Shown in pieces: positions 3,050 through 49,399 of a DNA stretch of 64,000 nucleotides; the first letter of the stretch is position 1, and each line of letters begins with the position of its first letter. The DNA is from an uncultured virus (IMG/VR IMGVR_UViG_3300014204_013755) (Duplodnaviria > Heunggongvirae > Uroviricota > Caudoviricetes), in the IMG/VR virus record IMGVR_UViG_3300014204_013755; one strand, 5' to 3'. The notes below the pieces were generated by a model. That model was not told where the DNA came from and did not search any database. It was given only the letters and a program-made list of their open reading frames with translations. The translations under genes were made by a program, and so were the position numbers.

Positions 3050-4153
3050 TTAGAATAATTTAAAATCATGGTTTTCCTTTATTTCTTGTAATAATATAAT
3101 ATAATACTTTATTGCCAATTCAACATCATCCATAGCAACAAGTTCATTTGGTGTGTGCATATATCTTAATGGAAAAGCAACTGTACCAGCAACTACACCA
3201 CCGTTCGATAAATAGTAACTATATGTGTTTGTGCCACCAGCTCTATGAATTTCAATTTGATGTTTTATTTCATTCTTTTTAGCAACACTTTTCATAAGTT
3301 CTAATAGACCATGATGAACATCTGACCCCTGATTAAATATTAAACCATCTCCGATTTTATATGTACCATATTTAGATTTATCAATAAGTGGTGTTGTAGT
3401 GTCAAAAGAGACATCAAAACAGATAGCTATATCTGGTTTAATTGTTTCTGTTATCATAGCTGCACCTCGAAGTCCTATTTCTTCCTGAACAGAATTAACA
3501 ACATATAAATCATATGGTAATTTTATATTTTGAGTGCGTATTTCTTTTAATATACTCAAAAGTATAAATCCACCAATTTTATCATCTATTGATTTGCCAA
3601 CTATATATTTGTCATGCAAAATTTCTGGCTCTCTATCAACTACCACAAAATTACCAACTTCAACACCCAATTCCTCAACGTCTTTTTTGCAAATAACACC
3701 TAAATCAATAAAAATATTATCTTCAGTTGGTCTGTCTGGATTTTCTTTTTTCTTCAAATGAATTGGAATCCAACCAAAGAATCCTTGTACTTTTTTTATA
3801 CCACCATCATCATATCTTTGGTTAGTTAATATTTTTATTTTTTGACCAATAGTTATATCATTGTCTGTACCGCCATTTCTAACAACACTAATATAACCAT
3901 CATCATTTATAGATTTTACAATCCAACCTATTTCATCACAATGAGCATCTATTACTACTTTCTTATGAATAGGGTTTCCAATATCGTCACCAGTGCATTT
4001 ACCACATATAAGAGCTGCTACATTACCATAATTATCTGTTATAATATTATCAGCGTATTTGGATGCTTCAGCCACCCATAATTTTTGTGCTTCTACTTCA
4101 TATGTAGATGGTGAATCAGTTTTAAGGTAATTTAATAATAAGTTTGTATCCAT
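3050..4153 (-). CDS. M42 family metallo-aminopeptidase
   Basis: DAHCDEIG, DDKIG, VQEEIGLRGA, FDV and RYMHTPNE metal-binding motifs. Confidence 0.9.
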   Translation of the reverse strand: MDTNLLLNYLKTDSPSTYEVEAQKLWVAEASKYADNIITDNYGNVAALICGKCTGDDIGNPIHKKVVIDAHCDEIGWIVKSINDDGYISVVRNGGTDNDITIGQKIKILTNQRYDDGGIKKVQGFFGWIPIHLKKKENPDRPTEDNIFIDLGVICKKDVEELGVEVGNFVVVDREPEILHDKYIVGKSIDDKIGGFILLSILKEIRTQNIKLPYDLYVVNSVQEEIGLRGAAMITETIKPDIAICFDVSFDTTTPLIDKSKYGTYKIGDGLIFNQGSDVHHGLLELMKSVAKKNEIKHQIEIHRAGGTNTYSYYLSNGGVVAGTVAFPLRYMHTPNELVAMDDVELAIKYYIILLQEIKENHDFKLF

Positions 4154-17307: not shown

Positions 17308-17580
17308 TATTTTCCAAAAAGGTTTTTATTTTAGTTTGTCTCAGTTTTTTCGTAAAACACTTCTGTCATTTTCATCATTTGCAAAAATATACATAATTAT
17401 CTAATATTACACATCTTTAAAATAATAAATTCTTTGATGAGGTGACTAATGTTATAAAGGGGGTATTTCCTTCTATTCCGATATAGACATTGTATACGGA
17501 TATTGTTATTAAATCTTAGTATTTTTTATAATAATATTTTTTTATTCAGAAAATATGTTTTACTTTACAAAAAATTAATT

Positions 17581-18843
17581 ATGGTAACATCATCAATGAA
17601 AATAAAAATAATACCAGTGGATGTAATATCCAAGAACTGGATATTTGATATTTTTAATGTATCTTATAAGATTCTGAATCGGGCTTATGATATATCACGG
17701 ATGTTACATCAATATCCAGTAATAATGTCACCTGTTACACCACCCAAATCACAAGTATATAATTTAACTACTCAGGAATTTCCTAAAGTTATTACTACTT
17801 ATCTGAGAGATTGGGTATATCAAGCAGAAAACAATTATAAAAGTGATGTTAAAGCTGGTTTATTATCAGGTAAAAGAAGTCCAAGACTGTATAAGAAATA
17901 TGGTGCTACACGTTTTCAATTTTTGAAAAATTCTAATCCAAAATTAATAAAAGAAAATGGTGATTTTTTTATTCTTATTAACAGTAGAACAAATATCAAA
18001 TTTAAAATAATATTCGACAAAAAAACAGGACATCTTAAAACTATGTTAAATAGATTTTTGGATTTAGAAAATAAAAAATACAATCTTAACTCAACTTTTC
18101 TTATTAAATATACCAATAGAAAAGAACTGATGTTAATTCTATCCTATGAACAAGACATCCAAGGTTATGTTGGCATAGATAATAGAGTGATGGGTATTGA
18201 TATGGGTGTGAGAAGATTTATTTCTTTAAGAATAAATGACATACCAAGTTATCAGAAGTCTATTCATAGTGAGAAATTAGTTCAACAGAAGTATGGTATT
18301 GCTATGAAAAATAAAAGGGTACAGGAATCTTCTGTATTAGCTAAATCAGGTCATGGTAGAACAAGAAAAATGCAGGTTTATAATAAAGTAAAAGATTCTG
18401 AAACATCATTTACTGATAATGTACTGGATAAATTATCAAAAGAAGTAATTGAATCTGCTGCAAAATTAAAAGTTCAACAGATAAACATGGAACGTCTTGA
18501 TAAGAATTCTATGAAAGAACAAAATTCTTATCTTGGAAGATATTGGGGTGTTATGACTTTGATGAATTTAATCGAACAGAAAGCAATTAAACGTGGTATT
18601 ATTATCAAATATATTGACCCTTATCATACAAGTCAGATATGCTCTTGTTGTGGTTCTATTGGTGAAAGAAATGGTGCTGAATTTAAGTGTTTAAGTTCGA
18701 AATGTGATGATTTTAATAAAGTAATTGATAGCGATTATAATGCTGCAATGAATATAGCTACATCTGTTGATTATTTAGATGATGCAAGCAAAGGAAAATA
18801 TTACTTAAATAAAACCGAAAAGGTTTTAGAAGAAGTTCTTTGA
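17581..18843 (+). CDS. cas12f: compact type V CRISPR effector, Cas12f1 (Cas14/TnpB-derived)-like, ~420 aa
   Basis: RuvC-I MGIDMG, GHGRTRK, RuvC-II INMERL, DPYHTSQICSCCG zinc finger, RuvC-III DSDYNAAMNIA; CRISPR array 217 bp downstream. ATG 17581 preferred over TTG 17503. Confidence 0.85.
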   Translation: MVTSSMKIKIIPVDVISKNWIFDIFNVSYKILNRAYDISRMLHQYPVIMSPVTPPKSQVYNLTTQEFPKVITTYLRDWVYQAENNYKSDVKAGLLSGKRSPRLYKKYGATRFQFLKNSNPKLIKENGDFFILINSRTNIKFKIIFDKKTGHLKTMLNRFLDLENKKYNLNSTFLIKYTNRKELMLILSYEQDIQGYVGIDNRVMGIDMGVRRFISLRINDIPSYQKSIHSEKLVQQKYGIAMKNKRVQESSVLAKSGHGRTRKMQVYNKVKDSETSFTDNVLDKLSKEVIESAAKLKVQQINMERLDKNSMKEQNSYLGRYWGVMTLMNLIEQKAIKRGIIIKYIDPYHTSQICSCCGSIGERNGAEFKCLSSKCDDFNKVIDSDYNAAMNIATSVDYLDDASKGKYYLNKTEKVLEEVL

Positions 18844-19060
18844 AATAATATTGAGGTTTATTGGGTTGGACGTAAGTCCAGTAAATGAACTGCTATATAC
18901 ACTCACTAAAATGTATGGTGAGCGCAGGGATTAAAACCAGATAGTGAGGTCAGGAAAGCAAAAATTGGATTTTTGAAAGTAAAATTTTAAAAATTACATA
19001 CTTTTTTTCCACTAATACACTCACTAAATACCTTAAATTGAGTGATTTAAATTATGGTAT
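18844..19060 (+). ncRNA. candidate tracrRNA/scaffold plus leader
   Basis: Non-coding gap between effector and array with hairpins TGGAC-GTAA-GTCCA (18867-18880), CTCAC..GTGAG (18902-18922) and ATACC..GGTAT (19028-19060); 14-bp direct repeat ATACACTCACTAAA at 18897 and 19015. Confidence 0.45.
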
Positions 19061-19359
19061 AGTGTACCAAGTCATAATTTGAAAGGTATACCCAACAGGT
19101 AAACAAAAACAACGAATCCAGATTTAGTGTACCAAGTCATAATTTGAAAGGTATACCCAACAGGAAAGACCAAAAGCCAAAGAGTTGGTTTAGTGTACCA
19201 AGTCATAATTTGAAAGGTATACCCAACTAACTCAGGATAATTCAAGTGCGAATAAATAGTGTACCAAGTCATAATTTGAAAGGTATACCCAACGGAATAA
19301 TCAAGCTTCTCAACTATCTTCTCAGTGTACCAAGTCACAATTTGAAAGATATACCCAAC
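19061..19359 (+). CRISPR. CRISPR array 1: 5 repeats of 36 bp, 4 spacers (29, 30, 30, 30 bp)
   Basis: AGTGTACCAAGTCATAATTTGAAAGGTATACCCAAC at 19061, 19126, 19192, 19258 and 19324 (last has 2 mismatches); unique spacers; strand inferred from the degenerate distal repeat and the cas gene. Confidence 0.97.
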
Positions 19360-19370
19360 AATTCCGTCCA

Positions 19371-20369
19371 TTATTTACTATAAATGCGTTTGACATTATC
19401 AAATTCATTTTTCACTGTGTCTGAATTAATATTATCAGTTATAATAGCATCTAAATCAAATATATCGTAAGTTTTTTCTTCTTCAAATTGTTCTTCAATG
19501 ATGTCTTGTTTAGTATAATGAATCGACTTCACGTTCAACTGTGATAATTTCATTTGAAATTCTAAATTTTCCGAAAGTTCGAAATTTATATTTAAATCTA
19601 CAAAATTATTATTAAGATATTCTTCGGTTAGTATTTTCAAATCACCAATAGAAGTGATATTTTTTATCTCAAATTTAGAATTAATTCCATTTGGAATGAA
19701 TTTTTCTTGTCCAGACTCCACATCTAACACCCAAATACCATTATTTTTGGAATTAAAATTTAATGGGTATGGGGATTCGATACATTTATTATTGCCTTTA
19801 GTTTCATCTTTAACGCCAGAATAAATTATTTTAAAGTCTATATTTAAATTAAGGCCATATATTTCATTATTTACAAATAAAAATTCACTTTCAGAATAAT
19901 GTTCAAGGTTCTCAACAGGCTCTAAAATCTTATTAAAATGATTTAAAAAAATATTTTTATTTTTAATTTCTTCAATTATATCTTTATGATAACCATATAA
20001 TTGTATTTTATTATCATATAAAGTAGCTGATTTGTCTACGATATAAACATTCTTTATATTTTTAAGTACAGTGAGGACATTTAATGTGCCATATGTATCA
20101 TGTTTAGATAGTAATATGAAAACTGGTAATAATTCTGATAATCTCTCGAATACTGAAACGGCCTGATTAATAGTTTTTACATTAATATTTTCATTTCTAT
20201 TGAACACATTACCAAGATGAATCAGGCAATCATTTTCTTTTTTATATTTTTTTATAAATGGTATGAGATAATCAAAATAATATTTACCCGATTCGTCTAA
20301 TGATTTATTTAAGTCGAACAATTCTTTATACCCAAATGTGCTATTTCCAATTATAAAAACTTTAGCCAT
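19371..20369 (-). CDS. Mre11/SbcD/gp47-like metallophosphoesterase with degenerate active site
   Basis: Spacing matches the family but motifs read GNSTFG, HLGNVF, LSKHD and SGVKD instead of SDxHxG, GDxF, GNHD and GHxH. Confidence 0.65.
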   Translation of the reverse strand: MAKVFIIGNSTFGYKELFDLNKSLDESGKYYFDYLIPFIKKYKKENDCLIHLGNVFNRNENINVKTINQAVSVFERLSELLPVFILLSKHDTYGTLNVLTVLKNIKNVYIVDKSATLYDNKIQLYGYHKDIIEEIKNKNIFLNHFNKILEPVENLEHYSESEFLFVNNEIYGLNLNIDFKIIYSGVKDETKGNNKCIESPYPLNFNSKNNGIWVLDVESGQEKFIPNGINSKFEIKNITSIGDLKILTEEYLNNNFVDLNINFELSENLEFQMKLSQLNVKSIHYTKQDIIEEQFEEEKTYDIFDLDAIITDNINSDTVKNEFDNVKRIYSK

Positions 20370-20772
20370 TTTTCATCGATTTATATTTTTCAGCGACATA
20401 TTTTTTCATTAATGTTGTCGAGATATTATCAATAAATGTATGTTCTGAAAATTGAATCTCATCCCTTGTTATATTAAAATAATCACTAACAACAGTACGT
20501 ATTATATCTTTACTTTGTTCAATAGTTAATTTAAATTTAACCTCTAAATCAATAAATAATGTTTTTTGAATTTCAACCCAAAATAATTCTGGGTTATGTT
20601 CATCTTTTAACCGTCCCATTTTAAGCATGATTTCATCATCAAAGATATAATAATTAAACTTACTCTTACTTCTGGGAGACGGTATAACATCAGACTTTTT
20701 TATAATATTGTAAACGAAATACTTAGGACTTCTACTCTCAATTATTTTTTGTGCAAGTTCTAAATTATCCAT
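20362..20772 (-). CDS. hypothetical protein, paralog of 45256..45591
   Basis: QKIIESRSPKYFVYNIIK versus QKIQEARSPKYFLWNIIK. Confidence 0.65.
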   Translation of the reverse strand: MDNLELAQKIIESRSPKYFVYNIIKKSDVIPSPRSKSKFNYYIFDDEIMLKMGRLKDEHNPELFWVEIQKTLFIDLEVKFKLTIEQSKDIIRTVVSDYFNITRDEIQFSEHTFIDNISTTLMKKYVAEKYKSMKNG

Positions 20773-42601: not shown

Positions 42602-43150
42602 TTAAATAATTTTATAATTTGTCTTTATTCTTTTATTCTCAATGTCAGTTAAAGTTTTATTTATTTTCTTTAAAGATTTGACATCAAAACGTTTTATAAA
42701 CAATGTTCCAAATATATGGTAATATTCATGTTGTATAATTCTGGCTATAATTCCCTCATAATCGACAATTTTATGTTCAAAGTTAGCATTTAAATAATCA
42801 ATACATATTTTATCAGGTCGAAACACATCATCCATCAAATTTGGGAAACTTAAACAACCTTCAGTTGCAGTGGTTTTACTATCACTTCTTTCTATTATAA
42901 TTGGATTTATAAATACTTCTTTGAACCCAAAAAACATATCTTCACCAAGTCCATCAGTAGTATCAACAATAAATAATTTTATAGGAACACCAACCTGATG
43001 AGCAGCCAGTCCTACACCCTTGGCTGCATTAAGGGTTTCAAACATATTTCTTATTAAGTCTTGTATATAATTTTTTTCATTTATTAAATCGATTGTTCTT
43101 GGTTGTTGTATAAGTATTGGTTCGCCATAGGTGTATATTGGTAGAATCAT
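42602..43150 (-). CDS. def: peptide deformylase
   Basis: GVGLAAHQVG, EGCLS, QHEYYH. Confidence 0.93.
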   Translation of the reverse strand: MILPIYTYGEPILIQQPRTIDLINEKNYIQDLIRNMFETLNAAKGVGLAAHQVGVPIKLFIVDTTDGLGEDMFFGFKEVFINPIIIERSDSKTTATEGCLSFPNLMDDVFRPDKICIDYLNANFEHKIVDYEGIIARIIQHEYYHIFGTLFIKRFDVKSLKKINKTLTDIENKRIKTNYKII

Positions 43151-44676: not shown

Positions 44677-45252
44677 ATGAAACCACTCGATTACATTAAA
44701 AAATATAACCTTGATAAAGGTGTAAACTTCAGTCATAATGAATTCATTTCAGACTTGACAATGGATTTTATTACACTTTTAGAAGTGGGTAATGCACGAG
44801 GTAATATTAAAGGTTATAATAACGCTGTCAATGCTATTCGAATGAAATGGGATGGCATAGATAAAAAAACGGCTGGTCAATTACCTGAAAAACTCTGGAA
44901 ATATTTTTTCGCTTCTGTGATAGCTAAATTACGGGAAGAATTGTTTCCTGAAGTAATGGAGCGACAACGACAGGAAAAAGAAGATTGGAAAAAAAGAAAA
45001 GAAGATTGGGAACGCATGGAAAAAGAAGAAGATTCTTGGATATTTGGATTCTTTTTACATTCATTGTTTTCAAAACAAAAACCATCATCCAGTTTTCAAG
45101 TTCTTGGGTTAGAAACTGATGCTACATTAGAAGATGTTAAAGGGGCATACCGCAAATTATCAATGGTTCACCACCCAGACAAAGGTGGTAACAGAGATAA
45201 ATTCATTGAGCTAACCGAGGCTAAAAACAAATGTATGGCATATCTCTCATAA
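44677..45252 (+). CDS. protein with C-terminal DnaJ (J) domain
   Basis: FQVLGL...AYRKLSMVHHPDKGG...F.EL.EA. Confidence 0.85.
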   Translation: MKPLDYIKKYNLDKGVNFSHNEFISDLTMDFITLLEVGNARGNIKGYNNAVNAIRMKWDGIDKKTAGQLPEKLWKYFFASVIAKLREELFPEVMERQRQEKEDWKKRKEDWERMEKEEDSWIFGFFLHSLFSKQKPSSSFQVLGLETDATLEDVKGAYRKLSMVHHPDKGGNRDKFIELTEAKNKCMAYLS

Positions 45253-45255
45253 AGA

Positions 45256-45591
45256 ATGGAAGAAGATACTTTAGATATAATACAAAAGATTCAGGAAGCC
45301 AGAAGTCCAAAATACTTCCTTTGGAATATCATTAAGGATACAGAATGGTATGTTTCTGAAAATGATTCTGATTATTTAATTGGTAAGAAAAATAATATTG
45401 TTTATTTTAATTATGATTTAAAAAAATACATTTTATATTATTCTTTCTCTAAAATACATCAAATTTTAGAAGAAAAATATCATCTTAATGATTTGAATAT
45501 TAATAAATTAGTTAGTAGTATGGTGAGTGAACACGCTAAATTGAAGGTAGACACATCGGTAGGGATGCTGATCGACTTATCCTTTTGGTGA
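45256..45591 (+). CDS. hypothetical protein whose 3' end overlaps repeat 1 and spacer 1 of array 2
   Basis: 111 aa; paralog of 20362..20772; stop TGA lies inside repeat 2. Confidence 0.7.
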   Translation: MEEDTLDIIQKIQEARSPKYFLWNIIKDTEWYVSENDSDYLIGKKNNIVYFNYDLKKYILYYSFSKIHQILEEKYHLNDLNINKLVSSMVSEHAKLKVDTSVGMLIDLSFW

Positions 45592-45795
45592 GTGAACACG
45601 CTAAATTGAAGGTAGACACATCGAGACCTTTATTCGTATAAAACTTTAGACTGGTGAGTGAACACGCTAAATTGAAGGTAGACACATCATGGGTATACAT
45701 TGCATTTTGATAGCAAAGGGTGAGTGAACACGCTAAATTGAAGGTAGGCATATCGAATATTCATGCTGCCGTTGACAGTCTTAGGTGAGTGAACA
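45522..45795 (+). CRISPR. CRISPR-like array 2 with no adjacent cas gene: 4 repeats of 36 bp plus a truncated fifth, 4 spacers (29, 30, 30, 29 bp)
   Basis: GGTGAGTGAACACGCTAAATTGAAGGTAGACACATC at 45522, 45587, 45653 and 45719 (2 mismatches); 12-bp remnant at 45784. Confidence 0.88.
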
Positions 45796-45837
45796 TATAA
45801 AAATGAGGATTATTGTAGATTAAAAACATCTAAAAAA

Positions 45838-46179
45838 ATGAAATATAATAACGAAAAAATGTTGAGTTTGTGTTTTGCACAAATAAAAACATATTTATCA
45901 GATGAAGATTTTGAATGGGTTAAAACTTTATCTGAAGATGATGTGATTGGATTACATCGCACCCTTGGTCAGAGATTGCGTAACGATTTAAAATTGTGGT
46001 ATAAAAGTGAAGTAGCCAAATGGTTTAATTCATTAGGTATAGCACATGCAGACGATATGTCTGGTATTATATTAAAATCTTTTCACCGTAAATTTAATGA
46101 TAAACCTATTAATTTAGAAGAACAAGTTCAATATTATAAAGATTGGTGGGCTAAACCAGAAGGTGAACGTTATGGATAA
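45838..46179 (+). CDS. conserved hypothetical protein (DUF6794-like)
   Basis: H..LG..LRN..KLW...GI.HADDMS.IIL pattern. Confidence 0.5.
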   Translation: MKYNNEKMLSLCFAQIKTYLSDEDFEWVKTLSEDDVIGLHRTLGQRLRNDLKLWYKSEVAKWFNSLGIAHADDMSGIILKSFHRKFNDKPINLEEQVQYYKDWWAKPEGERYG

Positions 46180-46791
46180 GAAACTCGAAAGATTCGTGAA
46201 GCTTCACGAAATAAACAAATCAGACGAACGTATAGAATTCGAAAGAACTCATACGCTCCATATGGGCATATTGGATGATGAAGGCGTAGAAGGTATAACA
46301 GAAATTGATAAAAATAACCCAGACCAAATAGAGAAAAGATATAAATCTATGGAACTTCGTTGTCGGATGAACGGTCAACGAAAAGGTAATGTATGTGGAT
46401 TCTGGGTTGATAATAATTTATTACCACACATAAAAGATAAAATAAATTCTGAAACTTCACAAAACTATTTGAAAAAAATAGCATATAAGATATAAATTAA
46501 AACATTTTATATCTATGGATAATATTTCAGGAAACGCAAATTACACAGAGATGACAGATGAGTTTCAGAAAAGAAAAAATAAAGAAACTCCAAAAGAAAA
46601 AACAAGTTCAATCCAAAATTATAACAAAAAAGAGTTCACAAAAGTTTTAAAAGAATTAACAACAAATTTTTATAAGGTATTAGAAAATAGTGAGAAACTT
46701 TATGAAATGAGAAGTTTAAAAGAATTAAACGATTTCAAAGTAACTGTCAAATCAGTCGAAAGAGATTTAAATAAAGTTCACGATATAAACG

Positions 46792-47242: not shown

Positions 47243-49399
47243 TTAAAATTTTATTTTAATTACTCGTTTGAATGACCCTTGTAATTTAACAATAAGTTCA
47301 TCTCGAACAGTAGCATTGAACCCAAAACCAGATAATTGTTTATTAGCAGGTTCAATCATAGTAGTGTTACCCAGTACTTCGAGAACTTTGCGATGTTGTG
47401 CTAATTCTGGTATCAAGTTTTCATTATGAAAACTACGAATATTTACTGGACATTTACAATCATCAAGCATGAATAAATAATGTTTATTTCCTACATTATT
47501 ATCTCCCCAATGATTAGGACTTAGACACACTAAATTCACTTTATGAAATTCATTTGTTTGTAAACCATAAAGTTCTTTAGATGATGCAATTTCAGGTAGT
47601 AAATGCTTAATGGTAAATTCCCCATTATTAAAAGTAACTTCAGCTACTTGTACATTGCCTGATACGGGTTTATTATATTCATAAGAATAAATTTCGCCCC
47701 CGAATTCAATTTCAGCTTTGAATCCTTTAGAACCCCTACTGGCATATTGGTTAATCCACAATTTGTAAACACCATCTTTCATTCTTTTGATATCAGTCCA
47801 AGCGATATTCTCAACAATATTTTTATTACTAAAATTATTAGGTTGAGTTATATCAATATCCAACTGTCCAGACATAGAAGTTCTATGATTTCCTCTGTCT
47901 TTTCTGTAATCAGACGAATAATAAATATGAGTACCATTTGGTTCTTGTGCATGAGCATCTAAATCGGAATTATCTGTTGGGTCATTTTCTGCCCACATAA
48001 TAGAGAAACGCAATACACCATCAACCTTACCACCTTTAGCTTCAACAGCATCTTTAATCATCGATTTACCAGCCAAGTTACCATTGAATGTCCAACTGTA
48101 ATTGTTATTCCATTTGAATATAGGTTTGCTTTCTTTATTGTTAGCTGTTGTTAAAGAAACAAGATTACCTTCATATTTGTTAGACAAATACGCTTCAACT
48201 GAAGTACACGAAGGAAGAACCTCCGACATAAACTTTTCAATAGTTACTTCTTCCACATTATCAAATTCACTTCCTTTGTGACGAGTAGAAGTCGATTTAA
48301 CATTGTCGAATATAGAAACAGTTTTTAATTTACCGTCTCCAACATTGATGTGTTTAATTTCCGAAGCTTTAATATCATCAATTGTGGCAAATCTTCTATT
48401 AAAAGATTCTTCATAACCATTTTCTTCAACGAATTTTTTAGCTTCTTCAATTTGTTTCTTGGTAATCGGAGCAACAGTTTTCATATAATTAACTGGGTCA
48501 ACTCTTTTATTCCAAGACTGACATGCTTTGTTTAATTCTTCCCCCTCTGCCAACTCGGTGCATAAAGTACCAATTAATTCATTTTTGAACTTAGCAAATG
48601 GAAGTTTATAACTGTTAATCCAACACCAATTATCCTTTTTATCATCGGATAATTTATCATATTGTTCTTTTAATGGTATGATTTGGTGTAATTTATACAA
48701 ATGAGTTTGTCCATCCAGCAGTGAACCTTGGTTAATAAGGTCTTTCACCAGATTGAGTGTATCAAGCGGTATCACTTGCATAGCCTTTTGAAAAACATTT
48801 TTGGCATCTCGATAATTAGCCATTATTTTTTCAACTGAATCATCACCCATATCTACAAATACCCTTGGTAGATTAAGATGTAAATGATTAAATGTTCTAA
48901 TTTCTTCAGGTTTAACTATGAAAGAATTATCTGAATTTTTATACAATTCAGCTTCCTCTTTTGTGTATTGCTTTACGTTTTTGTCAATACCCAATCTGAA
49001 AATTTCATTTGTTTTAGAACATTTCTCATAAGGTAAAGAATTTAGCTCGCTGAAAGTTTCAAAGAAAACACCCGAAACCGTAGCCGATTTTAGTTTAGAA
49101 TCTACCACTTTAGCTACTGCACTGTATTCTTCATCTGCATCAACATCAAACATCGTAACAACATTGAGATTTTCATCAATGGTAACGATATTACCATATC
49201 TACGAATAAAGTTATTACAGTGATTACAGTTATGAGAAGAACTGTCTGGACTTCTGAATATGGGATTGTGTTCTTTTGGAAAACTTTTAATATACAAATC
49301 CCACACTTCTTGACCAGTCAACGAACTACGAAATAACTTACCCGTTTCACACATCTTGTTGAATTGGGCTTGAATTAGTTTGTTAAACTCAATCATCAC
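47243..49399 (-). CDS. conserved phage hypothetical protein (718 aa)
   Basis: CNHC, VDPVNY, LRFSIMW..SDLDAH, LDIDI, SPNHW..GNKHY motifs; TACATTTG upstream. Confidence 0.65.
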   Translation of the reverse strand: MMIEFNKLIQAQFNKMCETGKLFRSSLTGQEVWDLYIKSFPKEHNPIFRSPDSSSHNCNHCNNFIRRYGNIVTIDENLNVVTMFDVDADEEYSAVAKVVDSKLKSATVSGVFFETFSELNSLPYEKCSKTNEIFRLGIDKNVKQYTKEEAELYKNSDNSFIVKPEEIRTFNHLHLNLPRVFVDMGDDSVEKIMANYRDAKNVFQKAMQVIPLDTLNLVKDLINQGSLLDGQTHLYKLHQIIPLKEQYDKLSDDKKDNWCWINSYKLPFAKFKNELIGTLCTELAEGEELNKACQSWNKRVDPVNYMKTVAPITKKQIEEAKKFVEENGYEESFNRRFATIDDIKASEIKHINVGDGKLKTVSIFDNVKSTSTRHKGSEFDNVEEVTIEKFMSEVLPSCTSVEAYLSNKYEGNLVSLTTANNKESKPIFKWNNNYSWTFNGNLAGKSMIKDAVEAKGGKVDGVLRFSIMWAENDPTDNSDLDAHAQEPNGTHIYYSSDYRKDRGNHRTSMSGQLDIDITQPNNFSNKNIVENIAWTDIKRMKDGVYKLWINQYASRGSKGFKAEIEFGGEIYSYEYNKPVSGNVQVAEVTFNNGEFTIKHLLPEIASSKELYGLQTNEFHKVNLVCLSPNHWGDNNVGNKHYLFMLDDCKCPVNIRSFHNENLIPELAQHRKVLEVLGNTTMIEPANKQLSGFGFNATVRDELIVKLQGSFKRVIKIKF

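Follow-up and report, generated by a model that had tools for sequence, protein, structure and literature searches.

CRISPR leaders are, to our knowledge, held to be non-coding, and the usual view of arrays found in viruses is that they were borrowed from hosts. The guide RNAs of TnpB and IscB nucleases overlap the 3' end of the nuclease gene, with one guide for each. For huge phages and megaphages, the CRISPR-Cas loci and orphan arrays are said to have been covered by Al-Shayeb et al. in 2020 and 2022, and the work of Altae-Tran et al. from 2021 is reportedly the comparison study for CRISPR-associated IscB. Among virus-borne systems, the mini-CRISPR arrays are short and cas-less and carry spacers against close relatives, some near the array, and exclusion of co-infecting relatives has been proposed as their role (Medvedeva et al. 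2019, PMC6858448, in the parts of the paper cited here). Huge-phage genomes of 500-700 kb encode compact class 2 effectors and TnpB-like genes and contain orphan arrays without Cas1/Cas2, the guides being thought to serve effectors elsewhere in the phage or in the host (PMC12607003, as far as the cited parts of that paper go). Type II arrays and CRISPR-associated IscB are further comparison systems (PMC12660989, cited in part), and in Flavobacterium columnare the type VI-B arrays are filled in trans by a II-C Cas1 (PMC8092290, likewise cited in part).

The DNA analysed here is a stretch of 64,000 nucleotides (the window) from a 675,678-bp record of an uncultured virus, IMG/VR IMGVR_UViG_3300014204_013755 (G0), which we compared with two related phage contigs (G1 and G2). 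A first-pass annotation, made from the letters of the window, had pointed out a CRISPR-like array growing out of the coding 3' end of a small gene. We report that this combination of small gene and array is an inherited, multicopy module of a giant-phage clade. We hold with high confidence that the array is a real CRISPR-type one, that it is fused to a conserved gene, and that the two form an inherited and widespread module. The fuller statement, in which this inherited, multicopy CRISPR module with a gene as its leader provides guides for miniature nucleases carried by the phages, is given a probability of roughly 0.6.

The module is similar to the mini-arrays in being short, in having no adjacent cas genes, and in occupying the same position in related viruses with different spacers; it differs in several respects from what the cited parts of the mini-array paper describe (PMC6858448). 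The mini-arrays are intergenic and have a host-like, promoter-bearing leader, whereas here the leader is a conserved coding gene and its last 12 codons are repeat 1. The repeats of the mini-arrays match those of the host, whereas the repeat here was found in no array of 185,579 species genomes, a set that may not include the host. The copy number reaches 11 per genome, unlike that of the mini-arrays, and the mini-array carriers have their own orthologous sites mutated against self-targeting, whereas four perfect matches to the carrier are present here (PMC6858448, same parts). With the huge phages the module shares arrays located away from cas genes, compact effectors, and the lack of Cas1; supplements aside, the cited parts of PMC12607003 describe neither a gene-fused array nor an array-tied protein family, both of which are seen here.

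The array and the gene that leads into it

The array of the window (45522-45819) is composed of four 36-nt repeats and a decayed fifth, separated by 29-30-nt spacers that are all different, with a period of 65-66 nt (Table 1). The earlier description of a real array with unique spacers and a decaying distal end is thereby confirmed. When up to 3 mismatches are allowed, the repeat occurs four times in the whole 675,678-bp record, always at this array, and the reversed control gave 0. Contigs from two public runs belonging to different studies cover 44700-45550, 45528-45615, and 45659-46200 with zero differing letters, so the junction and spacer 1 are not the assembly quirk of a single sample. 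No spacer gain or loss was seen in contigs of four runs, which break at the repeats. Among public RNA runs, none was found to contain the stretch. Beyond its retained 5' part, the terminal repeat is nearer to a repeat variant of phage G1 than to its own repeat 1.

Table 1. Coordinates of features in the window (position 1 is the first letter of the window)
Feature	Position	Strand	Remark
Cas12f-like / TnpB-family protein, 446 aa	17503..18843	+	candidate effector in the same window
Non-coding stretch from the Cas12f-like gene to its array	18844..19060	+	possible tracrRNA or leader (inferred)
Second array, 5 repeats of 36 nt	19061..19355	+	unfused to any gene; resembles the module repeat mainly in the 3' half
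Paralog of the ORF, 136 aa	20362..20772	-	no fused array; retains homologous codons for the repeat's 5' half, then unrelated tail
ORF, 111 aa	45256..45591	+	residues 1-101 conserved core; 102-111 tail encoded by spacer 1; stop in repeat 2
Repeat 1	45522..45557	+	CRISPR repeat and also ORF codons 90-101; inferred template for new repeats
Spacer 1, 29 nt	45558..45586	+	encodes junk tail of the ORF; no match in searches
Repeat 2	45587..45622	+	identical to repeat 1; contains the ORF stop codon
Spacer 2, 30 nt	45623..45652	+	
Repeat 3	45653..45688	+	identical to repeat 1
Spacer 3, 30 nt	45689..45718	+	
Repeat 4	45719..45754	+	2 mismatches
Spacer 4, 29 nt	45755..45783	+	
Terminal decayed repeat	45784..45819	+	5' part retained, about the first 13 bases
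Protospacer	47990..48020	.	in 718-aa ORF 47243-49399; 31/31 to a spacer of the syntenic G1 module; genome 484519-484549

The reading of the ORF in the first-pass annotation (repeat 1 in frame, spacer 1 as the tail, and the stop inside repeat 2) is correct, and so are the alternative tails quoted from the later units in the same frame, when the sequence is re-read. Repeat 1 begins at the last base of the Met-89 codon and encodes the last 12 residues of the conserved core. It had also been claimed that the would-be leader is protein-coding, and the comparison of gene copies agrees with this claim: the median dN/dS is 0.29 (16 copies, 120 pairs), indicative of purifying selection. For the repeat-encoded codons the value is 0.27. 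The fraction of sequences that depart from the column consensus is 0.185 at the first codon position, 0.116 at the second, and 0.221 at the third (16 copies). At the level of codon comparison, the gene is shown to be under protein-level selection.

The AlphaFold model of the 111-aa protein (pLDDT 86.4, pTM 0.76) has the repeat-encoded residues within its confident part; a helix (residues 79-94) and the last ordered strand (residues 100-104) are located inside or beside them. The model thus shows the repeat-encoded residues to be part of the predicted fold, and it places residues 107-111 below pLDDT 50, i.e. the tail is predicted to be disordered. Pfam (E<=0.01) and PADLOC contained no family that matched the protein, feature searches gave no lead either, and 25 members of the wider family gave nothing in Pfam above the cut-off used for this domain. 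A Foldseek search against PDB returned 0 matches at E<=0.001, and in VIA-align the best Z was 4.0, with none of 48,161 chains at Z>=5. Several weak VIA rows (Z 3.1-4.0) were MCM N-terminal domains, which we did not trust. In the wide family, no residues other than Met-1 and one Ile come close to invariance.

Alignment of the ORF with the paralog at 20362-20772, proposed in the first-pass annotation, holds at the profile level: the paralog (P0022) matches profile positions 4-112, and plain BLASTP aligns 27 N-terminal residues and no more. It was rightly called array-less in that it has no fused array, but the second array is only about 1 kb away. A tRNA scan of the window found none, and Rfam at gathering thresholds gave 0 matches over the whole window. 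Between 43400 and 46300, a promoter and terminator scan that may not cover the promoter type of the host was uninformative, with 13 promoter-like sites versus 17.3 expected and one terminator-like site versus 0.7 expected.

Conserved junction and fast spacer turnover

Arrays of this repeat family number one in G0, six in G1, and eleven in G2, and each of them follows a copy of the gene, always beginning at the same codon; with one further array in G004, the same-codon junction is present in 19/19 arrays. Full-length homologous loci found in viral contigs also carry arrays from this codon (2/2), and together with the 18/18 arrays of G0, G1, and G2 they bear out the earlier expectation that homologs would carry arrays starting at the same place. 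In 14/16 database homologs the repeat-encoded peptide is conserved and is then followed by unrelated tails. No array of the repeat family was seen without the gene, except for one solitary repeat behind an insertion in the locus L014. The junction is shown by these alignments to be conserved.

Sequence similarity between modules starts at the ATG, the flanks are unrelated from module to module, and no conserved neighbour gene was seen within 2 kb. The turnover of spacers is fast, as comparison of related phages shows: syntenic modules with flanks 89-99% identical have no spacer in common. The gene-near repeats are equal to repeat 1 and the older variants are distal (G1 180864, G1 410310, G2 597109, G2 78569, G2 443843, and G004), and in all modules the distal repeat is decayed with its 5' part kept. 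We infer that new spacers enter at the gene-proximal repeat, which would be copied each time; because entry at this point copies that repeat, the protein core would be retained and only the short disordered tail would vary.

The modules of G0, G1, and G2 contain 60 spacers of 28-33 nt (38/60 are 30 nt long), including one duplicated pair; the G004 array adds 4 more. Eight of the 60 match genes of these phages at up to 3 mismatches (sense orientation in 5 cases, antisense in 2), with G1 spacers matching G0, G2, and L014 and G2 spacers matching G0. The base A is found at the second to fifth positions 3' of the protospacer in 6, 6, 7, and 6 of the 8 sites, respectively, which is a small sample, and the 5' flanks of the same protospacers (gene-side reading) have no common base pattern. 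Four of the eight matching spacers are perfect matches to the carrier's own genome, and their flanks are A-rich too; such self-matches are hard to square with an active DNA-cutting system. Two protospacers of arrays adjacent to Cas12-like genes share a 7-base flank on the leader side, whereas the module protospacers have their A-rich flank on the side that points away from the gene/leader, and given the opposite flank side the modules may follow other rules than the Cas12f-like arrays.

The search for spacer targets and a shared PAM, suggested in the first-pass annotation, gave matches for 8/60 spacers of the modules as a whole, with a putative A-rich 3' flank, and for none of the window's own spacers (0/4) in related phages, INPHARED, or PLSDB. 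The INPHARED hits of the window spacers (6 records, one 33-base match, 85% identity, E=3) and the single PLSDB hit (E=3) were taken as chance. When the repeat family was searched in one genome each of 185,579 prokaryotic species, three single matches and no array were found, about chance level by a rough estimate, and the host may lie outside this set.

A profile search for the protein returned 324 representatives at E<=1e-3. Among the best 150 of these, 133 reach the repeat-encoded end of the profile and continue with short unrelated tails, and the C-terminal peptide recurs exactly 22 residues (66 nt) further on in 25 and at 21 residues in one more. The +1-frame signature was detected in 8/133 tails versus 3 matches in 13,952 body residues. 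The gene-array link persists from 25% to 100% protein identity, the distant members being known from proteins alone, and judged from these proteins the module appears to occur across a much wider phage protein family. In three proteins of 346-760 aa a single frame runs across several modules with no stop, and given these proteins, translation of the array may matter in some lineages. Scans of viral contigs with the family members P0030, P0050, and P0090 gave no locus, the scan with P0019 gave one candidate and no locus, and P0151 is absent from INPHARED. In cellular genomes the family was found in 0/401 sampled genomes from the phylum of G003, an empty result that shows little.

Candidate effectors and proposed mechanism

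The first-pass annotation stated that there was no cas gene nearby and missed the RNA-guided nuclease genes of these phages altogether. Although no cas gene is present within 20 kb of the fused array, a Cas12f-like gene with its own 5-repeat array is located at 17503-19355 in the same window, 26 kb off, and is the nearest effector-like gene. The genes encoded by these phages include Cas12f-like, TnpB-like, and IscB-like ones. The 446-aa Cas12f-like protein matches Pfam Cas12f1-like_TNB (6.5e-15) and PADLOC Cas12u3 (6.3e-64) and Cas12f (2.1e-60); it matches PDB Cas12f/TnpB chains down to 3.1e-34, with the RuvC residues D, E, and D aligned and present. The non-coding stretch behind its gene is part of a 1583-bp cassette that is 94% identical in G1. 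TNB-domain matches number 2 in G0, 8 in G1, and 9 in G2, and in each of the three the arrays adjacent to Cas12-like genes have repeats that resemble the 3' half of the module repeat. The module repeats presumably also resemble Bacteroidota type II-C and VI-B repeats and a published Cas12f repeat.

Elsewhere in its genome, G0 encodes a 529-aa RRXRR+HNH (IscB-like) protein with its own 8-repeat array, and by sequence similarity the repeat of that array aligns with the module repeat in reverse orientation. Despite its 11 modules, G2 is without an ortholog of the 446-aa Cas12f-like gene; it has the array-linked IscB-like gene as a fragment only, plus a 465-aa IscB that belongs to another type. None of the effectors has an ortholog common to all three phages. 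The 465-aa IscB gene of G2 is preceded by a G+C-rich, structured-looking stretch, a putative guide-RNA region.

Cas1 was not matched in G0, G1, or G2, and Cas2 was not matched in G0. For an anti-repeat in cis or in trans, nothing above background was obtained from a duplex scan around three G0 arrays, a contiguous complement search, a 22-mer scan allowing G-U pairs, or a comparison of the repeat with its own ORF on both strands against shuffles; since tracrRNA-repeat duplexes are short and imperfect, such a search is weak. A structured-looking stretch behind the array of locus L010 gave 0 Rfam matches at E<=1 and folds no better than shuffles (z -1.21).

Compared to type V-F (Cas12f) arrays, the module has the same 36-nt repeats and approximately 30-nt spacers, a similar 3' half of the repeat, and a Cas12f-like gene in the window. 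In type V-F, however, the flank is 5' of the protospacer, whereas here it is on the wrong side when read from the gene/leader and fits only the opposite strand; also unlike type V-F, the modules have no anti-repeat that our weak search could find, and G2 combines 11 modules with the absence of a Cas12f-like ortholog. The likeness to type II and IscB systems would consist of the putative 3' flank, a terminal repeat that decays in its 3' half, and a predicted crRNA made of the spacer and the 5' part of the repeat, alongside the IscB-like gene of G0 with its own array; the differences are that no tracrRNA was found and that G2 has no more than a fragment of the array-linked IscB-like gene. As in TnpB and IscB guides, the presumed guide-forming sequence overlaps a coding 3' end, so that one stretch would serve as codons and as guide scaffold. 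The overlapped gene in those systems encodes the nuclease and there is one guide, whereas here it encodes a protein of about 100 aa without a matched fold and the array is expandable.

We propose that the array, which would lack a promoter region of its own because similarity between modules starts at the start codon, is probably co-transcribed with the gene from upstream phage promoters. The probable role of the crRNAs would be to direct a miniature RNA-guided nuclease (Cas12f-like, TnpB-like, or IscB-like), whose gene lies at another place in the phage, against related co-infecting giant phages. Flank and terminal decay are best fitted by a crRNA that contains the spacer and the 5' part of the following repeat, which would be type II/IscB-like logic with a 3' A-rich flank; the mirror reading would be a type V-like guide transcribed off the other strand, with a 5' T-rich flank. 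To name the effector class and the transcription strand jointly is tentative, and we put such a choice at somewhat short of an even chance. As no recognisable Cas1 is encoded by the phage, the integrase would be a host enzyme acting in trans or something unknown. For the protein of roughly 100 aa our guess is a helper, specific to the array, that aids either the integration of spacers or the use of crRNA.

The F. columnare arrays offer a parallel for filling in trans: they have no Cas1/Cas2 of their own and yet gain spacers (as we infer here), their repeats are 36 nt long, and their leader, as in the modules, abuts the repeat end opposite the reported common short motif (PMC8092290, in the parts cited). 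The flank-bearing spacer end faces the leader in F. columnare, whereas it faces away in the modules (same source and parts).

Alternative explanations and significance

Could the small protein and the array be self-contained, the protein integrating spacers in cis or binding and using the crRNAs without any Cas nucleases, in line with the non-Cas guide system suggested in the first-pass annotation? We think this rather unlikely. The strict gene-array linkage from 25% to 100% protein identity favours such a system, as does the lack of a conserved neighbour gene within 2 kb, of Cas1, and of one effector ortholog in all three phages; the flank rule unlike that of the Cas12f-adjacent arrays and the absence of a known family or fold for the 111-aa protein point the same way. 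On the other hand, a protein of about 100 aa without conserved catalytic-looking residues is a weak enzyme candidate, its binding to nucleic acids is purely conjectural, and the repeats are related to those beside Cas12-like and IscB-like genes in the same phages.

It is improbable, in our estimate, that the arrays are by-products without function for the phage, formed when a host Cas1-Cas2 repeatedly mistakes the 3' end of the gene for a leader-repeat junction. A related proposal of the first-pass annotation, de novo birth of the array at this locus, fails, as the fusion is old and inherited. The repeat family was found in no array among 185,579 species genomes (one each), and since the linkage outlasts large changes of the repeat sequence within the family, mimicry would have to extend to many different host enzymes. 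Moreover, 52/60 spacers have no match to the carrier phages, and the terminal repeats retain their 5' part, as if used. These observations are set against the lack of a phage Cas1, the sparing of the protein core by insertion after repeat 1, the four spacers that match the carrier's own genome, and the known filling of Cas1-less arrays in trans in Flavobacterium (PMC8092290, in the cited parts).

The idea that the repeat-spacer units are meant for translation, i.e. that the module diversifies the protein C-terminus, was also raised in the first-pass annotation; selection of this kind is not supported in these phages, and we consider it very improbable. Spacers of frame-keeping length (30 or 33) make up 39/60, an excess explained by the usual spacer peak at 30 nt, and the other 21/60 shift the frame. 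Stop-free spacers are in no excess in the coding frame (43/60) versus the other two frames (42/60 and 35/60), the tails are predicted to be disordered, and the genes matched by spacers lie on either strand, which is the behaviour of protospacers. In favour of translation, 25 of the best 150 representatives of the wider family read a second repeat in frame, and the three proteins of 346-760 aa read several modules without a stop. Finally, an ordinary orphan mini-array overlapping the gene by chance (the null case of the first-pass annotation), with which the lack of a cas gene within 20 kb and of matches for the array's four spacers would agree, is ruled out by the same junction codon in 19/19 arrays of G0, G1, G2, and G004, and the protein-level signature across a family of hundreds of representatives also counts against it.

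In the preferred reading, the leader is a conserved gene, which we read as translated, and the repeat doubles as 12 codons of a protein with a predicted fold. A genome has up to 11 copies of the unit, which is inherited across a family with hundreds of representatives, none of them found in the cellular genomes sampled. It provides a handle on spacer gain in arrays that have no Cas1/Cas2, on the origin and spread of arrays, and on how guides are used by phage against phage. A small protein family is now named that is directly testable for a role in adaptation or with crRNA, and the repeat, constrained at once as protein and as an RNA/DNA signal, offers a natural experiment on the parts that a repeat cannot do without. 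A further and doubtful step would be to see in the family of about 100 aa a new kind of CRISPR-associated protein whose own gene is the leader, making the unit a self-sufficient guide cassette; the protein may act at the DNA or RNA coding for its own C-terminus, in Cas1-independent spacer integration or in crRNA maturation and hand-over. If this were true, gene and array together would be a portable guide cassette that phages have multiplied and swapped, and that different miniature nucleases (Cas12f-like, TnpB, and IscB) have tapped.

The gene and the array behind it

The stretch corresponds to positions 468539-532538, read on the minus strand, of its 675,678-bp record (G0; 27% G+C). Three of the four 36-nt repeats in the array are identical and one has two mismatches, the spacers measure 29, 30, 30 and 29 nt, and the repeat, with up to three mismatches allowed, occurs four times in the entire G0 record, always in this array (reversed control, 0). 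Repeat 1 starts on the third base of codon 89 of the ORF and encodes residues 90-101, spacer 1 supplies residues 102-111, and the stop codon lies within repeat 2. This overlap, described in the first-pass annotation, was confirmed, the junction and spacer 1 being identical in contigs from two runs of different studies, and its core idea, that the array grows from the 3' end of a gene and that the repeat is the gene's native coding sequence, proved right.

Among 16 gene copies (120 pairs), codons 1-88 have a median dN/dS of 0.29 and the repeat-encoded codons one of 0.27, and the second codon position is the least variable; the ORF is a genuine gene whose protein includes the repeat-encoded residues. 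An AlphaFold2 model built on 18 sequences (pLDDT 86.4, pTM 0.76) has a predicted helix (79-94) and strand (100-104) in the repeat-encoded part, and the spacer-encoded residues 107-111 are modeled at pLDDT below 50. Array-less members keep the codons homologous to the repeat 5' half and then carry tails unrelated to one another. Searches of Pfam, PADLOC, PDB folds and the Atlas gave no lead on the 111-aa protein.

Coordinates of the gene-plus-array module, its neighbors and other loci in G0 and the related phage contigs
Feature	Genome or contig	Position	Remarks
Array	window	45522-45819	four repeats of 36 nt followed by a decayed fifth copy
ORF	window	45256-45591	111 aa; reads into the array
DnaJ-domain protein (Pfam 4.8e-10)	window	44677-45252 (+)	directly precedes the module; synteny kept in G1 and G2
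DUF6794 protein	window	45838-46179	after the array
ORF resembling peptide deformylase	window	42602-43150 (-)	by inspection of the translation
Cas12f-like gene, 446 aa, with own array	window (G0)	17503-19355	RuvC D, E and D retained in the alignment; together with a 217-nt non-coding stretch and a 5-repeat array, looks like a complete miniature type V locus
Second TnpB-like gene	G0		
RRXRR+HNH (IscB-like) gene, 529 aa, with 8-repeat array	G0, outside the window	128709-130873 (L005:8709-10873)	array directly after the gene, then 13 tRNA genes in a cluster
Fragment of the 529-aa IscB-like gene	G2	395.6-396.0 kb	with a 2-repeat array
Array of another type (L037)	G2	177760-178000	4 repeats, 25-26-nt spacers; repeat end like a Cas12a-type hairpin
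Array of another type (L043)	G2	288245-288930	11 repeats of 36 nt
Remnant module (L070)	G1	190600-190750	immediately upstream of the Cas12f-like cassette; first 43 codons joined to the repeat 3' half through an internal deletion
Stretch within a module array	L014, 19.6-kb viral contig	620-1690	~900 bp with its own ORFs, inside the third repeat; G+C-richer by eye
Segment right behind the module array at 59.4 kb	L010, locus in G1	3436-3582	G+C-richer by eye, with complementary ends resembling an acceptor stem; called neither as tRNA nor as tmRNA, 0 Rfam matches, folding energy not above shuffles

A junction conserved in related phages and in a wide protein family

The overlap of gene and array is not due to chance. 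Both full-length homologs of the ORF in viral contigs (L010, L011) enter an array at the same codon, with related repeats and different spacers; the third match, L012, is a paralog over the N-terminal part only. In 14 of 16 database homologs the repeat-encoded peptide is kept and followed by complete divergence, and four of these 14 read through a second repeat. Ten metagenome loci gave an array in six (three of which coincide with parts of G1), a contig end before the junction in three, and no repeat in one divergent locus (51% identity). The large contigs of two related phages were analyzed whole: G1, of 421,673 bp and 59% complete, and G2, which has terminal repeats and measures 639,979 bp. 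Every array of this repeat family stands behind a gene copy at the same codon. G0 has one such array, G1 has six and G2 has 11, of which one G2 array has a truncated ORF and another G2 array has decayed to a single repeat and a remnant; a further one lies in the 97.9-kb contig G004. Homologs carrying arrays from the same codon had been named as a check on the initial proposal, and its suggestion of de novo array birth at this locus was judged wrong. Gene-family members without an array number two of three in G0, two of eight in G1 and two of 13 in G2.

A profile of the protein alignment, searched against 1.84 billion representative proteins, matched 324 of them at E<=1e-3, of which 23 reach E<=1e-10 and five reach E<=1e-30. 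The profile was trimmed at the last repeat-encoded residue, and 133 of the best 150 matches reach its extreme end and continue into tails that are short and unrelated (14 have 0-4 residues, 35 have 5-9, 23 have 10-14, 21 have 15-19, 16 have 20-24, and 24 are longer). The C-terminal peptide of 12-13 residues recurs in 27 of the best 150 representatives, at a spacing of exactly 22 residues in 25, equal to 36 + 30 nt, and of 21 in one, while the remaining case is an unrelated low-complexity match; a +1-frame repeat signature was found in eight of the 133 tails versus three hits in 13,952 protein-body residues. Since the first spacer must be in frame and free of stops, only some arrays are detectable in protein; in G0-G2, 12 of 17 first spacers lack a stop in the coding frame, and of all 60 spacers 39 preserve the frame. 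These counts are therefore consistent with array fusion in the majority of the family, the distant members being known as protein sequences. A sample of 401 genomes from one bacterial phylum yielded no member.

P0019 (760 aa), P0023 (346 aa) and P0039 (588 aa), proteins from the profile search, contain multiple gene-plus-array modules head to tail in one frame, the downstream copies lacking the N-terminal Met; translation of the arrays may occur in these lineages, or the three proteins may be rare chance read-throughs favored by the search. In P0035 (652 aa) a SET domain (Pfam 3.8e-08) precedes the array-linked domain.

Spacers, flanks and the direction of growth

Module spacers are 28-33 nt long, with a peak at 30 nt (38 of 60). 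In the three frames 43, 42 and 35 of the 60 contain no stop codon; they are not kept open for translation, which leaves the proposal of selected C-terminal diversification unsupported. Eight of the 60 match genes of these phages with up to three mismatches, one G1 spacer matching window 47990-48020 within a 718-aa ORF; relative to the ORF matched, five are sense and two antisense, which favors DNA over mRNA as source or target. On the side distal to the gene the protospacer flank has A at 6, 6, 7 and 6 of the eight sites (bases 2 to 5), and the gene-side flank has no pattern; by a rough estimate, AAAA at a fixed offset in four of eight sites is unlikely in DNA of 27% G+C.

Gene-adjacent repeats are of the repeat 1 form and older variants lie distally (G1 180864, G1 410310, G2 597109, G2 78569, G2 443843 and G004), indicating that array growth is polar. 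The decayed terminal repeat of the window array resembles a repeat variant of G1 more closely than its own repeat 1.

Four spacers (three in G1, one in G2) match their own phage perfectly, a poor fit to the other features; the resident genome may be protected, the system may act without cutting, or the strains may have been assembled as a mosaic. Published virus-borne mini-arrays, which are used in conflicts between related viruses, avoid matches of this kind to the carrier's own genome (PMC6858448). The closest described systems are these mini-arrays, the orphan arrays of huge phages together with their compact effectors (PMC12607003), and arrays whose spacers are filled in trans by the Cas1 of another system (PMC8092290). 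The passages returned by full-text search described no array with a conserved translated gene as leader and its last codons as repeat 1, nor a protein family tied to arrays like the modules' gene, an absence that does not mean such systems are unpublished.

Candidate effectors, guide readings and apparent exchange of the module

Orphan arrays and compact effectors have reportedly been seen in huge phages in earlier papers. Cas1 had no match in G0, G1 or G2 and Cas2 none in G0; the repeat family occurs in no array among 185,579 prokaryotic species (one genome each), and in IMG/VR, G0 apart, only in G1, G2, G004 and L014. The IscB-like locus of G0 is a phage-borne CRISPR-associated IscB. TNB-domain matches number eight in G1 and nine in G2, both of which also have IscB genes; about a dozen ordinary TnpB genes are scattered through them, with similar structured 3' ends that are presumably guide RNAs, and G0 has only two TNB-domain genes. 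A 1583-bp cassette of the Cas12f-like gene plus non-coding stretch is 94% identical in G1, in another context and followed by a different repeat.

The features of the modules all fit a reading in which the array would be co-transcribed with the gene, and each crRNA would consist of a spacer joined to the 5' portion of the repeat behind it, with a 3' flank at the target. It is suggested by the flank side, the 5' part kept in terminal repeats, and the absence of conserved sequence before the start codon. A mirror arrangement may apply instead, with transcription of the opposite strand, a handle ahead of the guide and a T-rich 5' flank. No anti-repeat was found by a duplex scan around the three G0 arrays, by complement and 22-mer searches, or by comparison of the repeat with its own ORF, and a search of public RNA runs gave none that covers the stretch. 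That the small protein and array act jointly as a guide system, as the first-pass annotation proposed, we regard as a less likely alternative. The three G0 repeat types are related, chiefly in the 3' half as read on the ORF strand, and the repeat most similar to that of the modules belongs to a G2 array beside a 502-aa Cas12-like gene; however, a simple satellite of Cas12f is opposed by the lack of an ortholog of the window Cas12f-like gene in G2, and by two protospacers of Cas12-adjacent arrays that share seven leader-side bases, the module flank being on the opposite side. One of these two, the only ones found, is matched by the most distal spacer of that G2 array (184950-186121, L038) at 186092-186121 (30/30), which by an estimate of the gene span lies inside the same Cas12-like effector gene.

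In L014 part of the repeat is duplicated on either side of the ~900-bp stretch, which looks like a mobile element inserted into the repeat; a solitary repeat and one spacer remain behind it, and spacer 2 of the array includes ~15 bases of the IscB-linked array-type repeat.

Similarity between modules begins at the start codon, and their flanks are unrelated except at positions syntenic between phages. At the syntenic site of the window array (G0, G1 180.6 kb, G2 44 kb) tblastx segments of the flanking genes show 89-99% identity, and yet the three modules have no spacer in common, differ in their repeat variants, and encode proteins only ~61-66% identical; spacer turnover is therefore rapid, and the cassette itself appears to undergo exchange.
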